A stretch of 12,197 bases of DNA from a virus (lineage: Duplodnaviria; Heunggongvirae; Uroviricota; Caudoviricetes). The notes below the pieces were generated by a model. The model saw only the letters and a program-made list of their open reading frames with translations. It was not told where the DNA came from and made no database searches. The position numbers and the translations under genes are program-made. Each line of letters opens with the position of its first letter. The stretch's first letter is position 1. Positions 1 through 12,197 of this stretch are shown here, piece by piece. The DNA lies in the IMG/VR virus record IMGVR_UViG_2778261689_000011, positions 1-12,197 of that record. The stretch is one strand, 5' to 3'.

Positions 1-3000
1 GTTACCAGCAGCGTTAACGGTGATGGTGTGTCCATGTGAACCAATCGCAACGGAGTGCGTATGAGCACCAATACCGACAGTATGCGCGTGTGCACCTGCG
101 CTTGCAGCAGTGCCGGACAGTGAGTGGGTATGTGCGCCAGCAGATGATGTTGCATAGTTTTGATTATGCACAACAGACAATCTTGTTGATGCACTACCAG
201 CACCGGAGTTAGCACTAGCCGTGTTCACGTTGGCTAGTGAGTGTGTGTGTGCTCCAGCCGAGTTTGTAGAGCCGCTCACACTGTGTGTATGTGCCCCGGT
301 GTTATTCGTGGATTTAGTGCCGTAATCAAACGACGATGTGGTTTTCGTCCCCAAATCTGTACTGGATGCGCTGGCGCTGTGGGTATGCGATTTAATGCCG
401 TCCTGTTCCTGAGACAATACGGCCCGACCACTGGCAGGTTTGCCCTTAATCGTCCAGCCACGCATATCAGGGATCACGCCTGACGGATAAGCGGCTGCAA
501 GTTTCGGGTAAGCAGATTTGTCAAAAGCCTGCCCCTGCATCAGGGCATAACCAGACGGAACGGTATCTGATGGCCACGGGATTGGTGCGCCGACTGGGTA
601 GCTTTCTGGTGGAAGATTTTTCGAGGTATAAACTTCTGCCCAGTCTTCCTCAAAACCATAACCGTCTCTTGAAGAACGGTAGAACAGACCACCATTTCTG
701 TAATGCGCCTTCATCTGCAGGGTCCGGCAACTTCCGACTCCGGTATAGAAGTTAACCAGAATATAGCTGTCGCCAGAGCGGGTGACATTGTAAGCGCCTG
801 ATTCGGCATTCCATGGAACGCCACCATCCGCATCGGCATATGTATCCGTTGCCCTTCTGGCAAAAGCAGCCACATGCGCGGCGGTTAAAGTAATATCTTT
901 GGAACCATCAAACTCAACACCAGAAACCCGTCTTGGCGTTTGCAGCTTTGTTGCTGTTAATGCATTACCGTTCAGACTTGCGGACAGTTTGGTTCCAATA
1001 ACCAGTTCGCCGGTTGCGTTATCAATAGCAAACGGTCTTAATGTATTCCAGCCACCATAAACATCACCTTGATTGGTAAGCAGCAGGTAAGTTTTAGCGC
1101 CATCATTACGCCATAATGCACCATACTCCCCACCTATCATTCGAATCTGATTACCACCACGCGCTACAATTTCGTCTGTGGCAAAAAGTTTTTTGCACGA
1201 CAAGTTATCGTTAACGATTAACGAATGAGACTCATAAAAACCACGCCCACTCTTAAAATCAAGGATAACGTCCGCCGCGATACATTCAGTCGCCGGATTT
1301 GTTGCCCCAAACTTATAGGTCGTATCATTAACAACGAGATCAGCACCAGGTGCGGATATTGACAGGCCATCTTCAATAAACGCAAAAACAGGGAAAGCAG
1401 CGCCATCAACATAGAACACAGAGCGCAAATCATCGCCCTTATTACTCATCATTATTGAGTGAATGGCTCGTTCATTGTTTTGATATTGCCAGAACATGCC
1501 ATAAGCATAACGCCCCCTGTCAGTCCAGCCACCAGGCATAACAAATCCGTTAAACTCGCAGTTATTCATCGGATCGCCTGCGGTTCGCGTTGCCGTGGTG
1601 ATAATGACTCTTGATGCCAGTTCGCTTACTGAGCCAGCAGAACGCATAACAACAACAGGGTAATATTTTCCAGATGTTGCACCTGCAGGAGCGTTAACCC
1701 GCACATAACGCATACCACGCTTATCAGCAAAGTCTGTTTTACTGACCGCGTTAATGTTGTTCAGGAAGCATCCCTTATCGGGTATATCAGCGCCGTTCTG
1801 GTCTTTCTGCAGACGTTTCTCTGCATTGTCATAGGCTGATTTTACTGCCTTTGGCGTTGCCGCCAGCGTTTCAGACGTACTGTTGGTCGCACTGCTGAGC
1901 TGTACTATCCCCTTTTTCGTCGTACTTGCATCCTCAAGCGCCACGGCGGATGCAATATCCTCTGCCCGTTTAGCTGCTGTCTCGGCGCGCGTTGCCGCGG
2001 ATTCCGCCGTACTTTTGCTCTGAGCTGCCGCCGTCGCACTGCCAGCAGCCTCTGTCGCCTTCGTGGATGCCGTCGTGGCGCTGCTCTTCGCTGCTGACGC
2101 TTGTCTGGTCGCCTCATCTTTTGAAGCAGACGCCGATGATGCCGATGACGCCGCCGAACTGGCTGACGATGCGGCAGCCGTTTTTGAGGATTCTGCGCTT
2201 GTTTCCGACGCTTTCGCGTTCGTTTCGGATGTCTTCGCTGCGGAAGCAGACCTCGCTGCTGCGCTGGCCTGTTCAGTGGCTTCGCCAGCCTTCGTTGTGG
2301 CTGTTGAAGCAGACGATGCGGCGCTTTCTGCCGATTTTCCGGCGGCGGTGGCACTGGCTGAGGCCTGCCCGGCACTTGTTGACGCTGCACTGGCAGACGA
2401 CGCAGCCGCTGTTTTTGAGCCTGCCGCAGCCGAGGCGCTCTGTCCCGCTGCCGTTTCAGAAGACCTGGCGTTCGTCTCGGACGTTTTTGCCGCCTTCGCG
2501 GAATTTCCTGCCGCCGTTGCCGAGGAAGCTGCACTACTGGCGCTTGATGATGCGTTCGTTTCTGATGATTTTGCCGCTTCTTTTGAGGCCGCCGCATCCC
2601 GGGCCGAGGTCGCAGCTTCTGATGCCTTCGTGGTCGCGGTGGATGCAGATGTGGCTGCTGATTGTTGTGACGCTGAAGCATTCGTTTCTGACGTTTTCGC
2701 CGCACCGGCACTGGTGGCCGCCGCGCTTTTTGAGGACTCTGCAGCGGCAGCACTTTTTGATGCTTCAGTGGCCTTTGTTGATGCCGTTCCTGCGCTGGAA
2801 GACGCTGACTGAGCCGACGACGCGGCCTGTCCGGCTGACGTGCTGGCTGCGCGTGCTGAGTCCGCAGCATCAGCCGCATGGGTTGCCGCCTCACGGGCTG
2901 ATGTGCTGGCATCACTGGCTGACTTCTTCGCGGCTGCCGTGTTCTGTGCCACCGCGGACGCGTTACGCGCCACCTCTTCCACCATCAGTTCAAAACGGCG

Positions 3001-3309
3001 CAGTGCCTCCGGACGGGCATCATCCTCCGTCATGGCACCGAGAAAATCATTCAGCGTACCGGGTTGAGAATCTTCATACACGGTAATGGTCCCGGCATGT
3101 GACGGCGGGAATCCTTCCACCAACAGAATAACGCTGTACTGACCGTACTCAACGTCCATGCTGTAACGCCCGGCTTCATCCGGATTTTCTGAGGCCAGCG
3201 TGTTCACCACCACCGTGGTGCTGTTACGTTTTGCTTTCAGCTGGATTGTGCAGTTCTGTACCGGTTTTCCTGTGCCGTCTTTCAGTACACCTGAAATCTT
3301 TACTGCCAT
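1..3309 (-). CDS. stf: Side tail fiber protein (lambda Stf / Rac StfR-like); ATG at 3307-3309; open in frame to position 1, so the C-terminus lies beyond the window (about 1103 codons present)
   Basis: Minus-strand translation from 3309 gives [20 protein letters not shown]..., matching the lambda Stf N-terminus as recalled. Spot translations at 2941-3000 ([20 protein letters not shown]), 1441-1500 ([20 protein letters not shown]) and 1-120 ([23 protein letters not shown]) are all in the same frame with no stop. Putative SD GGGGTG upstream. Absent from the ORF track only because no stop falls inside the window. Confidence 0.9.
22..385 (-). repeat. Seven HxH motifs (SHTHS, four GAHTHS, GAHAHT, GSHGHT) in the Stf C-terminal region
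   Basis: Direct translation of the minus strand over 1-390: ...KSHTHSAS...[24 protein letters not shown]...[44 protein letters not shown]. Visible on the plus strand as recurring gtgtg(t/c)gc units. Confidence 0.8.
1950..2975 (-). repeat. Ala/Ser/Thr-rich low-complexity repetitive tract (about 340 aa) inside Stf, with recurring KTSETNA / [10 protein letters not shown]-type units
   Basis: GC-rich GCN/TCN codon repetition; translation at 2101-2160 gives [20 protein letters not shown]. Several reading frames on both strands are open across this tract, producing the spurious ORFs 1905..2915(-), 1992..3086(+) and 2063..2812(+). Confidence 0.8.
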
Positions 3310-3319
3310 ATTCACCCCA

Positions 3320-3347
3320 CAAAAAAGCCCGCCTGAACCGGCGGGCT
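3320..3347 (-). terminator. Rho-independent terminator downstream of the lom remnant and directly upstream of stf
   Basis: 8-bp stem agcccgcc (3326-3333) / ggcgggct (3340-3347), loop tgaacc, followed on the minus strand by TTTTTT (complement of 3320-3325). Confidence 0.6.
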
Positions 3348-3373
3348 GTCATAACACTGTGTTACCTGGCTAA

Positions 3374-3563
3374 TCAGAACTTATAACCGACACCCACGAT
3401 GAAACCGTCAGTGCGCCAGTCGCCACTGCCGGAGCCTTCATAAGCAATATCAATGGCCACGGATTCGGTCGGGTTAAACTGCACGCCAGCTCCCCACGCC
3501 AGAGACGTGTTGCTGTGGCGACCGTCATCACTTCCGGTCAGCACGTCGTGCGTTTTCCCCTTG
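3374..3563 (-). pseudogene. lom: Lom/Ail/PagC-family outer membrane protein, C-terminal fragment of about 62 aa, interrupted by the IS5-family element
   Basis: Minus-strand translation ...KGKTHDVLTGSDDGRHSNTSLAWGAGVQFNPTESVAIDIAYEGSGSGDWRTDGFIVGVGYKF-stop, matching the Lom C-terminus as recalled. The ORF-track 153-aa ORF 3374..3835 continues into antisense IS sequence and is a hybrid artefact. Confidence 0.75.
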
Positions 3564-5538
<1,975 letters not shown>

Positions 5539-5550
5539 TTATTAAAACTC

Positions 5551-5583
5551 CTGACAACAAAAAACCCACCGCGAAGTGGGTTT
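5551..5583 (-). terminator. Rho-independent terminator between the ParB-like remnant region and the tape-measure fragment
   Basis: Stem aaacccac (5562-5569) / gtgggttt (5576-5583), loop cgcgaa, followed on the minus strand by TTTTTGTTGTT (complement of 5551-5561). Confidence 0.55.
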
Positions 5584-5703
5584 CAGGCGACATAATAGTA
5601 GATATAGCGATTACGAGGCCACGCAATGCTTTTCTCCAGGAGCATCATCGATTTAATTAAAGACACCATCACATCTCTGTAACAGAGTGTACGTAATTAA
5701 CAA

Positions 5704-5937
5704 CTACACACACTGCTCCTGAAAATACTGGTCATCCAGTGCAAAGATCACTGCTTCAAATTCATCGCGCTCAATCAATACCGGATGAGTGGCTAAATAT
5801 TCATTTATCTCTGTCAGAGATAAAGGCAAAGGCACCCCAGCCATTCCAGCATAACGTCGGGCACGGGATATTACCGAATAGGCGTACAACAACTCCTTAA
5901 GCACCGGGTCTATTTCTGGTTCCGGTATCGGTGGCAA
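5704..5937 (-). CDS. Hypothetical 77-aa ORF; possibly a third fragment of the decayed ParB-like gene rather than an independent gene
   Basis: ORF-track ORF; its first codon is TTG (complement of 5935-5937), and the first in-frame ATG is about 30 codons in. No recognisable motif. Confidence 0.25.
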   Translation of the reverse strand: MPPIPEPEIDPVLKELLYAYSVISRARRYAGMAGVPLPLSLTEINEYLATHPVLIERDEFEAVIFALDDQYFQEQCV

Positions 5938-6011
5938 CCTGAGTTTTTCTCGCTTCCATCTTGCCTTTTCCCCCCTTTCTCCCCCGAACTCCGATAACCA
6001 CCGCTGGGCAG

Positions 6012-6371
6012 CTATGGCTTTTTTATCGTATCCTGCTTCTGCTGCTCTTTACCCTGGGCGATGCTGGCTGCTTCTGCAAGGATCTGCCAGTACAACTCTG
6101 GATTCTGCTTAAGCAGCGCGATCCCTCGTTCTGCCGTATATTCCAGTGCAACCTCAACACCATTAACCAGTTCACCAACCCCTTTCCAGTCTTTCAGCAG
6201 ATAACGAGCGGCATTATCAATGAGTAAATCATCAACAGAATCCACCTCGGAAACCTTTGAAATATCAAACTCCTTCGTTCCGACGTGCAAACTGGCATCC
6301 ATTTTCTCAATGTGGCGACGGATTAATGCATTACGGGAGCGATACTGATCGTTATCGCTGCTTCTGCTCAT
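6012..6371 (-). pseudogene. YdaY-like ORF (119 aa); probable C-terminal portion of a frameshifted ParB-like nuclease-domain protein
   Basis: ATG at 6369-6371 overlaps the 3' end of the upstream ParB-domain ORF (6352..6615) by 20 nt in a different frame. Together with 5704..5937 the three ORFs tile about 900 bp. Confidence 0.55.
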
Positions 6372-6615
6372 CCGTCAGGCCAGACAGAACAATGACCGGA
6401 ACAGAATCCATTTTGAGCATTTCAGCCGCCATAACACGACCGTGACCCGCAATAATTTCGCCCTTTTCGTCAATCAGCACCGGATTAGTCCAGCCGAATT
6501 GCTTAATACTTTCTACCAGTTGTGCCACCTGCTCAGTACTGTGCGTCCTGGCGTTGTGCGCATACGGTGACAATTCTTGTAATGGGCGATAGACTATCTT
6601 TAATTTCTCGCTCAT
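6352..6615 (-). CDS. ParB-like nuclease N-terminal domain protein (87 aa, YnaK-like)
   Basis: Translation MSEKLKIVYRPLQELSPYAHNARTHSTEQVAQLVESIKQFGWTNPVLIDEKGEIIAGHGRVMAA... carries the ParB N-terminal signature (NPR-like box plus the G-x-x-R segment). ATG at 6613-6615. The ORF ends at the ParB TDEQKQR motif with no downstream half in frame. Confidence 0.7.
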   Translation of the reverse strand: MSEKLKIVYRPLQELSPYAHNARTHSTEQVAQLVESIKQFGWTNPVLIDEKGEIIAGHGRVMAAEMLKMDSVPVIVLSGLTDEQKQR

Positions 6616-6629
6616 ACAGCCTTGCTTTA

Positions 6630-6666
6630 TGAATAAAACGCACCCCAGCAGCCAGTGCTACTGGGG
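6630..6666 (-). terminator. Possible intrinsic terminator downstream of trkG
   Basis: Stem ccccag (6643-6648) / ctgggg (6661-6666) with a large 12-nt loop, followed on the minus strand by gcgTTTTATTc. Weaker than the other hairpins. Confidence 0.3.
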
Positions 6667-6752
6667 ACGGAGGTGTTGCTGGTAAAGTTAGGTATTGGAT
6701 CAATGAGTGAGTCAACATAATATTAAACTCACAATTATAAATCAGCCATATA

Positions 6753-8210
6753 TTAGGAGCGCCAAAAAAAACCTGAAAACAATATAATAACAGGATAAAT
6801 TTCAAGGCGACCAAGAATCATAGCTATGCACATTAAGCATTTTGCAATGTCATTAAGCACTCCGAATGACGATGCAGTAGCCCCAAAACCTAATCCCATA
6901 TTATTAATACATGCAGCCACTGTTGCAAATGATGTAAGAAAATCATATCCCATACCATTTAACACCAGTATAAAAAACACCGTGAAGAGAGTATAAAGAA
7001 AAAAGAAACTCCATACAGACCTCATTACACGATCTGTAACTATCTTCCCTCCTACATTTACACTCAACAACGCTCTGGGATGAGAAAGCTGATTTATCTC
7101 GTGTTTGCTTTGTTTGAAAAGTATAAGAAATCGAAGTGACTTAATTCCACCACAAGTTGAACCTATACATCCCCCAAAGAAACTTGACAACAGCAAAAAC
7201 ACTATCGTGTGCGTGGGCCAACTTGCATAATCCTGCGTAGCTAAACCATTATCAGTGAGCATGGAGCTGGCAAGAAAAAACGAATGAATAAAACTTCCAT
7301 GCAAGTCATACATACCTATATGCCAGACCTGGAAAGAGGTAACAATGATCACCCCTAAGGCTATTAACAGAAAGAAACGAAGTTCAATATCTCTGATTAA
7401 AGGTTTTATCGTTTTCCTGCTAATAACAATATACCAAAGAGTGAAGTTGAAAGCCGATAGCAGGGAAAAAGAACCAGCCACCAGCTCAACCAAATAGTTA
7501 TTAAAATATCCGATACTCTCGCTATGAGTTGAGAAACCACCAAGCGAAACTGTGGAAATCCCGTGACAAATAGCATCAAACAAAGGCATTCCTGCAAGTC
7601 TATAACAGACAATACAAGCAATACCTAATAAAGAATAAGTTATCCACAGTGTCCGTGACGTATCGGCCAGGCGGGGAGTGAGTTTGTCATCCTTAAATGG
7701 CCCCGGCATTTCTGACTGATAAAGCTTTGCACCACCAATACCCAATAATGGCAATACAGCAACCGCCAGAACAATAACTCCTAAACCACCTATAAAATTT
7801 AACTGTGACCGATAGTACAAATATGCCCGAGGTAATGAACTAACATCATCAATTACAGTTGCTCCTGTTGTTGTTATTCCAGAAACCCCTTCAAACAGAG
7901 CATCAATGAACGTTAAATTAAGTTCTGAGTCAATCCATAAAGGGAATGCACTAATAACAGAAAACAAAATCCAAAACATTACAATTATAATAAACCCATC
8001 ACGGGTACGTAATTGAATGCCAGATTTCTTAGTTGTATACCACGCTCCGCCACCAATGCAAAAAAATATAACGAAAGTTATAAAGAAAACAAACAGGCTT
8101 TTTTCTTTATAAAACAATGCTACAACCATTGGTGGCAACATTGAAAGACTATAGAGCCAAACCAGGAACCCACACATATGAGTAACAACTCTTACATGAG
8201 ATGTATTCAT
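6753..8210 (-). CDS. trkG: Trk-system potassium uptake protein TrkG (TrkH-family membrane transporter), a prophage moron
   Basis: Translation MNTSHVRVVTHMCGFLVWLYSLSMLPPMVVALFYKEK... is polytopic and hydrophobic, matching TrkG as recalled. The ORF-track start at 8228 is a TTG; the first ATG is at 8210. Markedly AT-rich compared with its neighbours. Confidence 0.9.
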   Translation of the reverse strand: MNTSHVRVVTHMCGFLVWLYSLSMLPPMVVALFYKEKSLFVFFITFVIFFCIGGGAWYTTKKSGIQLRTRDGFIIIVMFWILFSVISAFPLWIDSELNLTFIDALFEGVSGITTTGATVIDDVSSLPRAYLYYRSQLNFIGGLGVIVLAVAVLPLLGIGGAKLYQSEMPGPFKDDKLTPRLADTSRTLWITYSLLGIACIVCYRLAGMPLFDAICHGISTVSLGGFSTHSESIGYFNNYLVELVAGSFSLLSAFNFTLWYIVISRKTIKPLIRDIELRFFLLIALGVIIVTSFQVWHIGMYDLHGSFIHSFFLASSMLTDNGLATQDYASWPTHTIVFLLLSSFFGGCIGSTCGGIKSLRFLILFKQSKHEINQLSHPRALLSVNVGGKIVTDRVMRSVWSFFFLYTLFTVFFILVLNGMGYDFLTSFATVAACINNMGLGFGATASSFGVLNDIAKCLMCIAMILGRLEIYPVIILFSGFFWRS

Positions 8211-8347
8211 ATCTAAATATTCTTTCAATTATAACCACCTTGCTGCAATATTATGATTATACTGTATAAAATTTAACTCCTCTTAGATCTTACTTCACTG
8301 TTCCTTATGAAACAATCATCAAAATGAATCATATTGTAGTTAAGATT
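8211..8347 (-). promoter_or_regulatory. AT-rich intergenic region between Rz and trkG; probable autonomous trkG promoter region
   Basis: 137-bp AT-rich spacer; the minus strand contains TATAAT-like hexamers (cagTATAATcat and ggtTATAATtg) shortly upstream of the trkG ATG. No confident -35 element. Confidence 0.3.
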
Positions 8348-8812
8348 TTACTTTAAACACTGCTCGGTTATGTATTGCTGAGCACCTTCAAGTTGGGCCT
8401 GCATCATTACCAGTCGTTCCCGGAGGGTGAAATAATCCCGTTCAGCGGTGTCTGCCAGTCGGGGGGAGGCTGCATTATCCACGCCGGAGGCGGTGGTGGC
8501 TTCACGCACTGACTGACAGACTGCTTTGATGTGCAACCGACGACGACCAGCGGCAACATCATCACGCAGAGCATCATTTTCAGCTTTCGCATCAGCTAAC
8601 TCCTTCGTGTATTTTGCATCGAGCGCAGCAACATCACGCTGACGCATCTGCATCTCAGTAATTGCCGCGTTCGCCAGCTTCAGTTCTCTGGCATTTTTGT
8701 CGCGCTGTTCTTTGTAGGCGATGGCGTTATCACGGTAATGATTAACACCCCATGACAGGCAGACGACGATGCAGATAACCAGAGCGGAGATAATCGCGGT
8801 TACTCTGCTCAT
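8348..8812 (-). CDS. Rz: Rz i-spanin (inner-membrane spanin subunit)
   Basis: Translation [51 protein letters not shown]... is near-identical to lambda Rz as recalled. The ATG at 8810-8812 overlaps the R stop as ATGA. Confidence 0.9.
8407..8592 (-). CDS. Rz1: Rz1 o-spanin (outer-membrane lipoprotein), embedded in the +1 frame of Rz
   Basis: Translation [57 protein letters not shown]...: lipoprotein signal with lipobox Cys and a proline-rich mature part, lying entirely within Rz. Confidence 0.85.
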
Positions 8813-9285
8813 ACCTCAATCTCTCTGACCGTTCCGCCAGCTTCTTTGAATTTTGCAATCAGACTGTCAGCCTTATGCTCGAACTGACCATAACCAGCGC
8901 CCGGCAGTGAAGCCCATATATTGCTGCAACGGTCGATAGCCTGACGGATATCACCGCGATCAATCATCGGCAAAGAGCCACGCTCTTTAATCTGCTGCAG
9001 CGCTACAGCATCCTGACTTTCTGGAGAAAAATCTTTCAGGCCAAGTTGCTTGCGGTAGGCATCCCACCAGCGTGAAAGAAGCTGGTAACGTCCAGCGGCT
9101 GTTGATTTGAGTTTCGGATTTAGCGTGACAAGTTTGCGGGGGTGATCGGAGTAATCAGTGAACAGTTCGCCACCGACAATAACATCATAACCGTGATTTC
9201 TGGTTTTCTGCCGTCCGTTATCTGTTCCTTCTGACCATGCCACCATATCAAGGAAAGCTTTACGCTGGGAATTAAGTGTCTGCAT
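8809..9285 (-). CDS. R: Endolysin R (lambda-type lytic transglycosylase), 158 aa
   Basis: Translation [61 protein letters not shown]... is near-identical to lambda R as recalled. SD AAGGAG 6 nt upstream of the ATG at 9283-9285. Confidence 0.92.
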
Positions 9286-9288
9286 TAA

Positions 9289-9630
9289 TTACTCCTTATG
9301 GGCACCGAACTTGTTACCGATGACCCTCATTGCCGCACCACGAATAGCATCAACACCAATCAGCCCCACCCCACCACCAATGGCAACAGAAAGTGATTTA
9401 GGCCATCCGACATACTCAAGCGCGGATGCAAAGGTCAGCGTCAGAGCACCACAAAGCAGAATCTCAAGCGTTTTTCGTTTCCAGCCGCCGCCACCGCCAA
9501 AATAGGCAATGCGCAAACCAGCCATAATAATTGACATAACCACTGCACCCAGCGGCGTATCTCCACGCCACCAACTTTGTAAGAGTTCCAGTAAGTCAGG
9601 CCAGGAATGAGGGGCATTGTGCATTTTCAT
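9289..9630 (-). CDS. S: Class I holin with an N-terminal Met-Lys-Met dual-start motif (lambda S-like arrangement)
   Basis: ATG-AAA-ATG at 9630-9622 (minus strand) preceded by SD GGAGGTGA; an in-frame GTG lies 3 codons upstream (9639). Hydrophobic segments, a Gly-rich stretch and a charged C-terminus. Sits immediately upstream of R with a 3-nt gap. Confidence 0.8.
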   Translation of the reverse strand: MKMHNAPHSWPDLLELLQSWWRGDTPLGAVVMSIIMAGLRIAYFGGGGGWKRKTLEILLCGALTLTFASALEYVGWPKSLSVAIGGGVGLIGVDAIRGAAMRVIGNKFGAHKE

Positions 9631-9723
9631 AAGCCTCACCTCCGAGAGTTCGGATGGTGCTAAGTGTAAGATTCAGGCTCTCAGGCTTGCTAACAAGAAG
9701 TCGAGGATGTTTCCGGAGCCTAA

Positions 9724-9753
9724 CAACGAAAAAGCCCCGGGACATGCCGGGGT
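9724..9753 (-). terminator. Rho-independent terminator immediately upstream of the holin (downstream of the moron)
   Basis: Stem ccccgg (9735-9740) / ccgggg (9747-9752), loop gacatg, followed on the minus strand by cTTTTTcgttgtt. Confidence 0.6.
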
Positions 9754-9847
9754 CAGATGGAGTGCCAGATTAAGCTTCTGGCGGTATATACTCGTGTTTG
9801 ATATCGTTAAATCGCCAAAAGTAACAATTCAAACAAAGAGGATTTTT

Positions 9848-10009
9848 ATGTCTGAAAAAAACAAGCCACAAGATGAAAATAAACCTCAGCAACCCGTGGC
9901 ACCAAAACCAACTCCAACACAAAGTACTACAGACTTTGCTACACGTCGTGTTTTTGTTGGAGATTCTGCCGACTCAGTCATTGAACATATAAAAAAACAG
10001 CCGAGATAA
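9848..10009 (+). CDS. Hypothetical small protein (53 aa), hydrophilic and Lys/Pro/Gln-rich; convergent with the moron and overlapping its 3' end by 32 bp
   Basis: ATG at 9848 preceded by SD AAAGAGGA with a 5-nt spacer; TAA at 10007-10009. Translation MSEKNKPQDENKPQQPVAPKPTPTQSTTDFATRRVFVGDSADSVIEHIKKQPR. No family recognised; it could be non-coding or antisense. Confidence 0.3.
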   Translation: MSEKNKPQDENKPQQPVAPKPTPTQSTTDFATRRVFVGDSADSVIEHIKKQPR

Positions 10010-10547
10010 ACATCGCCGCTACCGGAGCAAGGATGGTATACATCCTTGCTTTATCGAGACTCGTGCGGATTTTCTCATTTTCCAACAGTAACTCTCTTGC
10101 TGTATCACTCAAGTCAACAAGGCGATACCTTCGTATAAGCGGCAATAACTTATCAGGTCCTAAATATCCTGCATCAGCGAATATTTTAAAGCTCGAGGGC
10201 TCCATATCCTTATATTTTTCATGATATAGATGATCAGGAGGGGCATTGATCAGGCCCCTAACCTTCACAGATAAACCAGTACATACCAAGTAAATGGCGC
10301 ACCATGTCCATAGTAATGTAAATGTGGTAATTCCGGCGGTGAGAAAATCGAAATTAGTTTTCTGTGTCAGCAATAAAAAAGATGAACCAATTCCAACAAT
10401 CTGAATGTTCAGAAGTTTGTATCCATTCTCAACATTGGTTTTGTTAGAAAGATGAATCTCTCGTATCGTCTCTTCCCCTTGTTTTTCAAGATAATCGACG
10501 AGCTCATCATCTACTCCTAAAAAATAATCTTTAGGTAGTTCTCTCAT
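9978..10547 (-). CDS. Uncharacterised membrane protein (189 aa) encoded by an AT-rich moron inserted between the Q antiterminator and the holin
   Basis: ATG at 10545-10547 with SD GGAGGT immediately upstream; 570-bp ORF in AT-rich DNA. Predicted hydrophobic helices at roughly aa 70-95 and 170-189. Terminators on both sides (10655-10685 and 9724-9753). No family recognised. Confidence 0.6.
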   Translation of the reverse strand: MRELPKDYFLGVDDELVDYLEKQGEETIREIHLSNKTNVENGYKLLNIQIVGIGSSFLLLTQKTNFDFLTAGITTFTLLWTWCAIYLVCTGLSVKVRGLINAPPDHLYHEKYKDMEPSSFKIFADAGYLGPDKLLPLIRRYRLVDLSDTARELLLENEKIRTSLDKARMYTILAPVAAMFISAVFLYVQ

Positions 10548-10654
10548 CTCACCTCCACATCCTGTACTGAAAACAATTTTACCAGAATGTCTCGATTCTA
10601 GGTATTCCGCCAGGAATCGCGCTCCAGAAATGAAACATCAGGTTCGCCAGTACC

Positions 10655-10685
10655 AGAAACAACAAAACCCGCTCAATGGCGGGTT
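10655..10685 (-). terminator. Rho-independent terminator about 85 bp downstream of the Q gene (tR'-like position)
   Basis: 7-bp stem aacccgc (10666-10672) / gcgggtt (10679-10685), loop tcaatg, followed on the minus strand by TTTTGTTGTTT. Confidence 0.6.
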
Positions 10686-10768
10686 CTGGTAAAGTTCATG
10701 CGCTTGGTTCGCCTCGCGATACAGCTTTGCGAAGCATACCGGAATTGAAGCAGTTTATGCGTAAAAAA
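10686..10768 (-). promoter_or_regulatory. Putative late promoter (pR'-like) and Q-utilisation region between the Q stop and the first terminator
   Basis: Position only: in lambdoid phages pR' and qut lie directly downstream of Q and upstream of tR'. Candidate minus-strand hexamers (TTGATT ... TTCAAT) are weak and not confidently assignable. Confidence 0.3.
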
Positions 10769-11311
10769 TCAAGCTATTTTTTGAGCAAATGATTCTCGCA
10801 TGGGAATATATAGGGCATACTCAGCAACAGCCAACCAATTAGCAATTCGCTTTTCGCATGTGCTAAAACACCACTCAGGATGTGCATCATTTAGCAATTC
10901 AGCCATTTTGCGCTTAGTCATCCCCCGTCCTTCATACCGTTGCCGGAGGACACTAATCAATCCAGGATGCTCTGCCAGCACCTCACTTATGACTCTATCA
11001 ATACATAACGCCTCTGCATCAGTACAATGCGCCAGCCAGGTCTTTTGCTTGCCATTGATCATCTCTCGCAAAAACGCTTCCAGCTCAGGTTTCTCTATTC
11101 CCGCTTTTTTCATCCTGCGCAGGGCTTCATTGACGGCTGTTTTCGTCAATTTTTTGGATGCCAGCAACTGGTTAAACATATTTCCCGTCTTACCGCCGCC
11201 AATATACGACCAGCGCCCCCACATGCGCAGTTTTCCCTGAATCCAGACACTTTCCAGCGTGGTGAGACGAAGGTGTTCCCCGCTTTTGCCTGTATTTGTT
11301 GGGTAAATCAT
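10769..11311 (-). CDS. Putative late-gene antitermination protein Q (non-lambda Q family), 180 aa
   Basis: ATG at 11309-11311 with SD AAGGAAGG, overlapping the upstream gene's stop as ATGA. Lies between the YbcO-like nin gene and the terminator/lysis cassette. N-terminal ...LRMWGRWSY... resembles the LE(K/R)WG-W motif of Q21/QuuD-type antiterminators. Family assignment from memory and position only. The ORF-track start at 11431 would overlap the upstream gene and is unlikely. Confidence 0.6.
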   Translation of the reverse strand: MIYPTNTGKSGEHLRLTTLESVWIQGKLRMWGRWSYIGGGKTGNMFNQLLASKKLTKTAVNEALRRMKKAGIEKPELEAFLREMINGKQKTWLAHCTDAEALCIDRVISEVLAEHPGLISVLRQRYEGRGMTKRKMAELLNDAHPEWCFSTCEKRIANWLAVAEYALYIPMRESFAQKIA

Positions 11312-11598
11312 AAATAACCTTCCTTTCTCCAGATTTCTTGTGTGCGAAAAACACCTTCTGCATGCATCAGGCGTAATTCTTCTTTGGTGTAATCGCTGGT
11401 TTTTACCCGCCCGTCGATTAAATCGTGGCATGAGCTACAGGCAATCGCTGCCTGCATATCGTGTGGTTTTGTCGCTGTTCCGCACGTCCCCGCCAGCCTG
11501 TAATGCGCCAGCACAGAGGTTTCGGGATTGTGATTGCAGTAGCCAGGGATTCTGATCTGGCACATCTGGCCTTTAGCCGCTTTACGTAAATTCACCAT
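11308..11598 (-). CDS. YbcO-like DUF1364 protein (putative zinc-binding nuclease of the lambdoid nin region), 96 aa
   Basis: Translation MVNLRKAAKGQMCQIRIPGYCNHNPETSVLAHYRLAGTCGTATKPHDMQAAIACSSCHDLIDGR... with the Cys pattern and CQ(I/V)RIPG motif recalled for YbcO. ATG at 11596-11598 overlaps the upstream stop as TAATG. Confidence 0.8.
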   Translation of the reverse strand: MVNLRKAAKGQMCQIRIPGYCNHNPETSVLAHYRLAGTCGTATKPHDMQAAIACSSCHDLIDGRVKTSDYTKEELRLMHAEGVFRTQEIWRKEGYL

Positions 11599-12197
11599 TA
11601 CGCAAACTCCAGTAGTTGTGCGGCCACATTTTCAACTTCCTCCTGAGAGGAGAATTTACGGAACAGAATCCAGTTCCACAGCACATTCAGAACAGATTTA
11701 TAAACCTGCTGAAACTCGGTTTCGTCCATATTCGCAAACGCGATGGATTTCGCCCTGCGCCCACGGCTACCTTCCGGATAAATATGCTCGGTGTAAAATC
11801 CGGCCTGAATGGTTACCCACTCGCGGAAAGCCTCAAACGACTTTAGCAATGCCGTATCCCGAGTTCTGCGTGTCGCAACTGTATTTAGATATTGCTCTGC
11901 GGCATCACTCAGGGCTGGTGTGTGTTCCCGACCAACTGATTCGCACAAGTAATCCACGAAACCAGACAGCAGTTCTCGTTCGCGAGGTGTGATCGCCCCA
12001 CCGACCGGAGTCCAGTAATCGAATCCCAGTTGCAGGAGTTTGAAAAAACGCTTGTGGAATGCGTAGTTACGCACACGCTTAAAGTCTGCGTGTATCCACT
12101 CACCTATTTTGATTTGATGCAGAAAATCGCAACTCTCCGGCGTCGCCGGGAGAAGTAAACCAGAAGAGGTTTGTTTGACCAGTTGTATATGCGCCAT
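11598..12197 (-). CDS. Lambdoid nin-region protein, possibly DUF1367 family; the start codon coincides with the window edge, so the 5' end may be truncated
   Basis: 199-codon ORF ending TAA at 11598-11600, tightly coupled to the downstream gene. ATG is the complement of 12195-12197 at the very end of the window. Family assignment is tentative, from gene order and recollection. Confidence 0.65.
   Translation of the reverse strand: MAHIQLVKQTSSGLLLPATPESCDFLHQIKIGEWIHADFKRVRNYAFHKRFFKLLQLGFDYWTPVGGAITPRERELLSGFVDYLCESVGREHTPALSDAAEQYLNTVATRRTRDTALLKSFEAFREWVTIQAGFYTEHIYPEGSRGRRAKSIAFANMDETEFQQVYKSVLNVLWNWILFRKFSSQEEVENVAAQLLEFA

Follow-up and report, generated by a model that had tools for sequence, protein, structure and literature searches.

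A mobile pair of convergent genes between the late antiterminator and the holin of a Rac-type Escherichia coli prophage

Why does a Rac-type prophage of E. coli carry an A+T-rich membrane protein gene between its late antiterminator gene, Q, and its holin gene, and is that gene a passenger or part of the lytic program? The question is raised by the 12,197-nt window analyzed here, which is positions 1 to 12,197 of IMG/VR virus record IMGVR_UViG_2778261689_000011. A first-pass annotation, made from the letters of this DNA without database searches, had read the stretch from 9640 to 10768 as a moron consisting of a single gene, expressed from the prophage in a promoter-gene-terminator layout and tied to the Q-to-holin (Q-S) interval, which in Shiga toxin (Stx) phages is the site of stx. 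Comparison of related loci confirmed a moron and changed its contents and limits: the variable slot between the terminator tR' and the holin holds an autonomous two-gene element, in which the gene for the 189-amino-acid (189-aa) membrane protein is met head-on by a convergent gene for a 53-aa protein.

The limits of the element were set by pairwise comparison with a related locus that carries other cargo (L018), where homology to the window stops at 9838 and resumes at 10653. These breakpoints delimit a mobile cargo of ~9839 to 10652, with a G+C content of 0.403, comprising a promoter-like element, the 189-aa gene, and the convergent 53-aa gene, so that only this inner part of the 9640 to 10768 region proposed earlier is transferable. 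Accessory cargo at a variable Q-S locus had been predicted, and the slot behaved accordingly. Among 2,213 E. coli genomes matching the Q-to-holin region, 225 carry the whole interval, and other prophages with the same Q family hold different cargo at this place, including an ORF6N gene with two small genes, TolA C-terminal-domain genes, tRNA genes, and tRNAs accompanied by TerB, DUF3927, and an esterase.

The cassette is found in ~4% of complete E. coli genomes and also in Klebsiella, Citrobacter, Serratia, Yersinia, Proteus, Providencia, Morganella, Pantoea, and Salmonella. Placement of the pair between Q and the lysis genes was seen in prophages of Serratia, Pantoea, Morganella, Klebsiella, Trabulsiella, and Yersinia, and the copies in the Q slot span at least three Q families (Phage_antitermQ, lambda-type Antiterm, and DUF1133) and several holin families. 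The cassette is not bound to the Q-S slot, as had been supposed. In one subgroup that includes E. coli prophages, the pair lies between the gene for the tail assembly chaperone (Phage_TAC_1 or DUF6246) and the tape-measure gene (TMP_3), beside other small morons. That the cassette occupies two classical moron sites speaks for its autonomy and against a dedicated role in lysis. At every locus examined, the family was in a prophage context. Cassette-bearing phage records with names in "vB_EcoS" reportedly derive from a study of clinical E. coli isolates and the phages located in their genomes, and these records were not counted as evidence of phage activity.

The second gene, which replaces the single-gene view with a pair, encodes a 53-aa hydrophilic protein (9848 to 10009, plus strand; WP_240763414.1 in the NCBI Prokaryotic Genome Annotation Pipeline, or PGAP; PHROG 14506). 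Its ribosome-binding site reads AAGAGGA, and the two genes share 32 nt at their 3' ends. A set of 101 loci from genomes and IMG/VR yielded 45 distinct intact 189-aa proteins, and the small open reading frame (ORF) was present opposite all of them (45/45), with overlaps of 20 to 32 nt. The cassette is an obligate convergent pair. Outside the overlap, the ratio of nonsynonymous to synonymous substitution rates (dN/dS) of the 53-aa gene was 0.25 in frame and 1.0 to 1.7 in four of the five other frames; the 0.35 obtained in the remaining frame, which is antisense, is the expected mirror of the real one. The 53-aa gene is thus under purifying selection as a protein. Its product is probably disordered, with an N-terminal part rich in Pro, Gln, and Lys, a conserved C-terminal F-x3-R-x2-V-G-D-S-A motif followed by a lysine-rich tail, and a net charge of +2. 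A profile search with this protein returned ~70 clusters, all without names and with the same taxonomic spread as the large gene, and in both genomic contexts examined the homologues face a large-gene homologue of 189 to 211 aa convergently. Among very distant homologues (20 to 35% identity, on short contigs), a convergent small ORF was called in L105 and L107, with the motif no longer recognizable.

The larger gene (9978 to 10547, minus strand; PGAP WP_001208722.1, "hypothetical protein") is a real ORF with the strong Shine-Dalgarno sequence attributed to it, GGAGG (10552 to 10556, minus strand), read from the sequence 4 nt before the ATG. The lower G+C content noted in the first-pass annotation was also evident, with a value of 0.389 (0.36 at third codon positions) versus 0.471 for Q, 0.512 for the holin, and 0.491 for the endolysin (0.47 to 0.52 for the neighbors including Rz), and a dN/dS of 0.10 indicates purifying selection. 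Two or three transmembrane helices had been anticipated, and both AlphaFold2 and hydropathy predict three. The AlphaFold2 model, built from a 41-sequence alignment (predicted local distance difference test score, 82), has helices at residues 14 to 62, 68 to 92, and 134 to 188, and the hydrophobic stretches fall at ~45 to 62, 70 to 94, and 169 to 188. Together with the lack of domain hits, these data predict a small inner-membrane protein with no catalytic domain, whose fold is a simple three-helix hairpin without a transporter, enzyme, or signaling domain. Residues 1 to 44 have a net charge of −5 and the loop from 95 to 168 contains 14 Lys and Arg residues; from hydropathy and this charge distribution we infer a topology in which the N terminus and the 95-to-168 segment are cytoplasmic and the C terminus is outside.

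The first-pass annotation had recognized no family for this protein, and profile hidden Markov model (HMM) and structure searches gave only PHROG 11870 (function unknown), the sole PHROG matched, which covers the full length of the protein at an E value of 6e-108. No Pfam or NCBIfam family matched, a sequence-profile search of the PDB with the family gave nothing below an E value of 0.09, and BFVD contained no relative. A Pfam scan of 24 distant family members produced noise only (8xMP, PycTM, and SLATT_3, at E values above 0.005), and a literature search by accession and PHROG number found no paper on the family. Homologues fall into 104 clusters at 90% identity across Enterobacterales, nearly all exactly 189 aa long and all unnamed. 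The full profile search gave ~100 clusters at 50% identity, 160 to 200 aa long, with a common layout of an N-terminal Y-F-x-D-x-D-D-E-x-L, a G-x-G-S-S stretch of small residues in the first membrane helix, P-x2-L-Y, and R-R-x-R-L.

Expression of the 189-aa gene from within the cassette is suggested by a −10-like hexamer, TAAAAT (10576 to 10581, minus strand), preceded by TGG as in extended −10 elements (TGG-TAAAAT, 10576 to 10584). TAAAAT or TAAGAT occurs 26 to 48 nt upstream of the ATG in 35/42 distinct upstream regions, tail-located copies included, compared to a mean of 2.1 and a maximum of 7 in shuffled controls and 0 to 2 in windows further upstream. This positional conservation makes TAAAAT the putative promoter of the 189-aa gene itself. 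A terminator hairpin precedes the element in nearly every context. The alternative that the hexamer is the late promoter pR' was ruled out, as loci L003 and L004 share it despite having different Q families, and prophages with the same Q and other cargo are without it.

The two intrinsic terminators that had been placed around the gene, at 10655 to 10685 and 9724 to 9753, were recovered in a terminator scan at 10655 to 10688 and 9725 to 9752 (both minus strand). The upstream, tR'-like terminator (hairpin from 10688 to 10663, U run to 10655) folds at −18 kcal/mol with a z score of −3.7, and 0/200 shuffled sequences were as stable. The second (hairpin from 9752 to 9735 followed by UUUUU), placed just ahead of the ribosome-binding site of the holin, has a folding energy of −12 kcal/mol and a z score of −1.2; it is weak alone, but a hairpin and T run lie at the same place in most divergent loci. 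Folding also identified a further hairpin, GCCAGA...UCUGGC (9764 to 9782, minus strand), just upstream of the second terminator, and its arms co-vary by eye across loci (GCCAGT/ACTGGC and GCCGCC/GGCGGC).

Both terminators are best assigned to the phage frame and not to the moron, because both are shared with L018 and because phage phi80 has such a pair around a gene-free interval. In L018, the 130-bp tR' unit (10653 to 10782) is 93% identical to the window, and the stretch from the holin to the start of the small gene (9289 to 9838) is shared as well, the two lying in the range of 93 to 98%. In phi80 (L117:3990-4430), two annotated terminators separate pR' from the holin with ~260 nt of gene-free DNA between them, an interval that looks like an empty version of the Q-to-holin slot. 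Just past the tR' unit, at 10654 and 10664, respectively, L020 and L021 cease to be homologous to the window. The promoter-gene-terminator description of the moron therefore stands in part: a conserved −10-like element is present and a terminator lies downstream, but neither terminator is likely to have come with the cargo. The tR' unit, presumably with pR', is itself portable: in L018 it is found downstream of the inserted ORF6N gene and not beside Q.

A ~30-nt core (9797 to 9826; late strand, GGTTACTTTTGGCGATTTAACGATATCAAA), located between the downstream terminator and the small-gene start, is almost invariant among loci whose proteins share only ~50% identity. An alignment (A3) and a single-sequence fold place this core within a late-strand RNA hairpin (9791 to 9840, minus strand) that extends over the small gene's Shine-Dalgarno sequence and upstream region. 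For 25 distinct sequences, pairing is seen in 80.5% of the alignment cells, compared to 34 to 50% when the partners are slid, a contrast that is inflated because the structure was derived from one of the aligned sequences. Eight pairs changed on both sides; one, for example, is CG in 12 sequences, UA in 7, and UG in 3. Many of the pairs are G-U, which would be A-C mismatches if read on the other strand. Support for the hairpin is good, though not conclusive.

The geometry of the core would also suit a promoter of the small gene, with TTGATA, a spacing of 17 to 18 nt, a weak −10, a ribosome-binding site, and the ATG, but the spacer is conserved too. By eye, it is not a good fit to a sigma-E, sigma-54, sigma-28, or sigma-32 promoter. 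A third gene, for a hydrophobic late-strand peptide opposite the small ORF (with the core read as YFWRFNDI), was rejected, since many loci have a stop 3 to 4 codons upstream and no start, leaving no ORF that is consistent among loci. No Rfam family reached its gathering threshold across the window, and hits in 9600 to 10800 were at chance level only. The core precedes a different antisense gene in L018, and tail-located copies of the cassette have a different upstream region. In the IMG/VR prophages L056 to L060, the core is followed, by eye, by an apparent tRNA gene start instead of the hairpin and terminator.

What the cassette does is less certain than what it is: its anatomy, the pairing, selection on both genes, and its mobility are shown by the data above. 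An anti-phage role is plausible and is our best guess. We tentatively propose, at somewhat less than even confidence, that lysogens produce the membrane protein, which would act against superinfecting phages, with its small partner as a regulator. The 189-aa protein would be produced from its own weak promoter, the TAAAAT just after tR', and would insert in the inner membrane so that its two soluble segments are cytoplasmic. It could then block genome entry or, once control is lost, damage the membrane in an abortive infection. The small basic protein would be its obligate partner, in the simplest case binding the acidic N-terminal helix as an inhibitor or regulator. The arrangement of the two genes offers a second layer of control. 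Large-gene mRNA must cross the entire small gene before reaching a terminator, and the terminator scan found no plus-strand terminator inside the large gene, which would make the two transcripts antisense partners. If they are fully antisense, expression of the two genes would be mutually antagonistic, and late transcription driven by Q would shut off the small gene and increase expression of the large one, coupling the state of the module to the lytic switch of the prophage, as described for phi80 tai/ati.

Several observations weigh against this proposal. No −35 is recognizable at the putative promoter, which was assigned by conservation alone, and 7/42 distinct upstream regions are without the −10-like hexamer. 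Neither the 189-aa nor the 53-aa protein matched any family of PADLOC-DB v2, at E values up to 10, and no sequence or fold similarity was found to SieA or SieB of P22, SieB of Rac, gp15 of HK97, or TaiA and AtiA of phi80 (in hmmsearch with the family HMM, at most 1 bit for the P22, Rac, and HK97 proteins and negative bit scores for the phi80 proteins). An interaction between the two proteins is suggested by charge complementarity and nothing further. Known toxin-antitoxin pairs are usually co-directional, and the genes of this pair converge. In ~80% of loci the cassette is directly upstream of a holin, a position that also fits a late or lytic role. A more elaborate version of the proposal is improbable: an undescribed two-component membrane defense in which a pore-forming or entry-blocking three-helix protein is held in check by the small disordered protein, and in which the antisense arrangement and RNA hairpin form a switch that Q flips, leaving defense on in the lysogen and giving self-immunity at induction.

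The position beside the holin leads to the rival in which the cassette works for the phage in the late phase, by modulating lysis (as an antiholin-like timer or an accessory of the holin or spanin) or by acting at the membrane during virion production, with Q-dependent read-through of tR' supplying the transcript. The late orientation of the gene in most loci, upstream of several holin families and downstream of at least three Q families, agrees with such a role, and in L006 and L009 the gene follows tR' without a −10-like element, so that it could be read from pR' only. We nevertheless regard it as quite improbable. The cassette is missing from most relatives with the same Q and holin (all but the 225 carriers), some copies are remote from the lysis genes, lying between those for the tail chaperone and the tape measure, and the 189-aa protein matched none of the holin or lysis families of Pfam and PHROG. 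A conserved terminator separates the cassette from the holin, and an obligate partner gene in antisense orientation would be left unexplained.

The strict pairing itself, with no intact large gene found without the small one, could come from a selfish addiction module of the toxin-antitoxin type that stabilizes the prophage, in which the membrane protein would be a stable toxin, the small protein or antisense transcript a labile antidote, and any defense a side effect. Antisense overlap of the transcripts and an ultraconserved regulatory region would be at home in such a module, which we consider unlikely because known toxin-antitoxin and defense HMMs went unmatched and purifying selection on the small protein makes a purely RNA antitoxin improbable. 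The convergent layout is atypical of type II systems, and the hydrophilic small protein does not resemble type I toxins. Large-gene copies that are disrupted or truncated do occur (loci L015 to L017 and the short clusters P0033, P0084, and P0097), and in L015 the small gene is intact beside the disrupted large one, but these copies are too few to establish asymmetric decay. Cargo could also serve lysogenic conversion unrelated to phages, altering envelope stress, ion homeostasis, colonization, or another aspect of host physiology as other Rac cargo such as trkG does. Moron architecture, a G+C content as low as that of trkG in the same prophage, and the tRNAs and esterases in the Q-S slot of O157 prophages are all compatible with this, and the slot is known for host-directed cargo such as stx. 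The simple three-helix hairpin, lacking a transporter, enzyme, or signaling domain, offers little for such a function, the family was confined to prophage contexts at all loci examined, and an antisense-coupled partner suggests tight control of a kind more typical of a harmful effector. We therefore rate a host-directed function as a poor prospect, no better than the lytic one.

The slot lies in a Rac-type lambdoid prophage of E. coli that makes up the window, and the Q-to-holin interval is 100% identical in chromosomal prophages of many strains. According to PGAP annotation of one of these strains, combined with Pfam and PHROG matches, the minus-strand order is DUF1367 (NinB-like), DUF1364/YbcO, a DUF1133 Q-type antiterminator, the two "hypothetical proteins" of the cassette, a lambda-family holin, a GH24 endolysin, Rz/Rz1, and trkG. 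The upstream border of the slot is the Q-type late antiterminator (10769 to 11311, minus strand; Pfam DUF1133, E value of 2.8e-109), which has an additional weak match to Pfam Phage_antitermQ and belongs to PHROG 753, "anti-termination protein Q-like." The downstream border is the lambda-family holin (9289 to 9630, minus strand; Pfam Phage_holin_3_1, E value of 1.9e-27). Directly after the lysis cassette is trkG (6753 to 8228), which encodes a potassium transporter typical of Rac and has a G+C content of 0.378, as low as that of the moron.

The prophage in the window appears to be defective, with an IS5 transposase gene (3632 to 4642) breaking up the tail region (3374 to 5538). By eye, a 342-aa ORF (4510 to 5538) that reads into the IS5 end resembles a tape-measure fragment, and a 153-aa ORF (3374 to 3835) looks lom-like. 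A ParB/Srx-like gene (6012 to 6615) is represented by two overlapping ORFs (6352 to 6615 and 6012 to 6371), and the intact 795-bp copy in a Rac-type relative, E. coli AR_0369 (L001), suggests a frameshift. The region from 1905 to 3086 has a G+C content of ~0.60 to 0.64 and is open in several frames on both strands, with ORFs of 336, 364, and 249 aa, most of which must be spurious; this could be a repetitive side-tail-fiber region like that of Rac. In L001, the anti-phage genes iteA and iteS lie between the NinB-like gene and the replication genes (14974 to 18367), which is a second cargo site of this prophage type.

A moron is a known kind of element; the protein pair encoded by this one is uncharacterized. 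If the cassette protects lysogens, it would add a compact, new, and widespread family to the membrane-acting exclusion and abortive-infection proteins, so far a short list. It would also provide a second, independent example of how a prophage couples an accessory function to its own late transcription via a gene on the opposite strand. Strict pairing, defined cargo boundaries, and a covarying hairpin make the system easily testable by cloning ~1.1 kb, whatever its function.

Among known systems, the morons of HK97 and HK022 provide a close architectural precedent: they are present in some relatives only, differ in base composition, and have a promoter-like element in front and an intrinsic terminator behind. 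The HK97 genes for gp22 ("moron") and gp23 ("reverse moron") are, per annotation, convergent and overlapping as well. They show no sequence similarity to the cassette, which differs in being an obligate pair across Enterobacterales accompanied by an ultraconserved noncoding hairpin. HK97 gp15, described as a superinfection-exclusion moron (Cumby et al. 2012, as cited in PMC11364771), is likewise a small membrane protein. Its gene lies between those for the tail assembly chaperone and the tape measure, a site that some copies of the cassette share. However, gp15 has 62 aa and one hydrophobic segment, is the product of a single gene, and has no detected similarity to the 189-aa family. SieA of P22 and SieB/Esc of P22, lambda, and Rac resemble the 189-aa protein as membrane proteins of 160 to 190 aa expressed by prophages from their own promoters, and SieB has a built-in self-protection product, Esc. 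They lie at other genome positions and share no similarity with the cassette, and Esc is an in-frame internal product, whereas the partner in the cassette is a separate convergent gene.

The phi80 tai/ati system bears on how the cassette might be controlled. It places a defense gene on the opposite strand within the Q-controlled late operon, a "noncontiguous operon," and expression of that gene drops when Q is expressed (PMC11364771). Like taiA/atiA, a defense and counter-defense pair, the cassette is a pair inside a late operon controlled by Q, and one of its members, the small ORF (9848 to 10009, plus strand), lies between tR' and the holin against the direction of late transcription. The phi80 genes are divergent, with an overlap at the 5' ends, and precede the packaging genes, and TaiA is a soluble protein of 204 aa, with no similarity to either member of the cassette. 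In the cassette it is the small gene that is the antisense member, and the late-oriented gene apparently has a promoter of its own as well.

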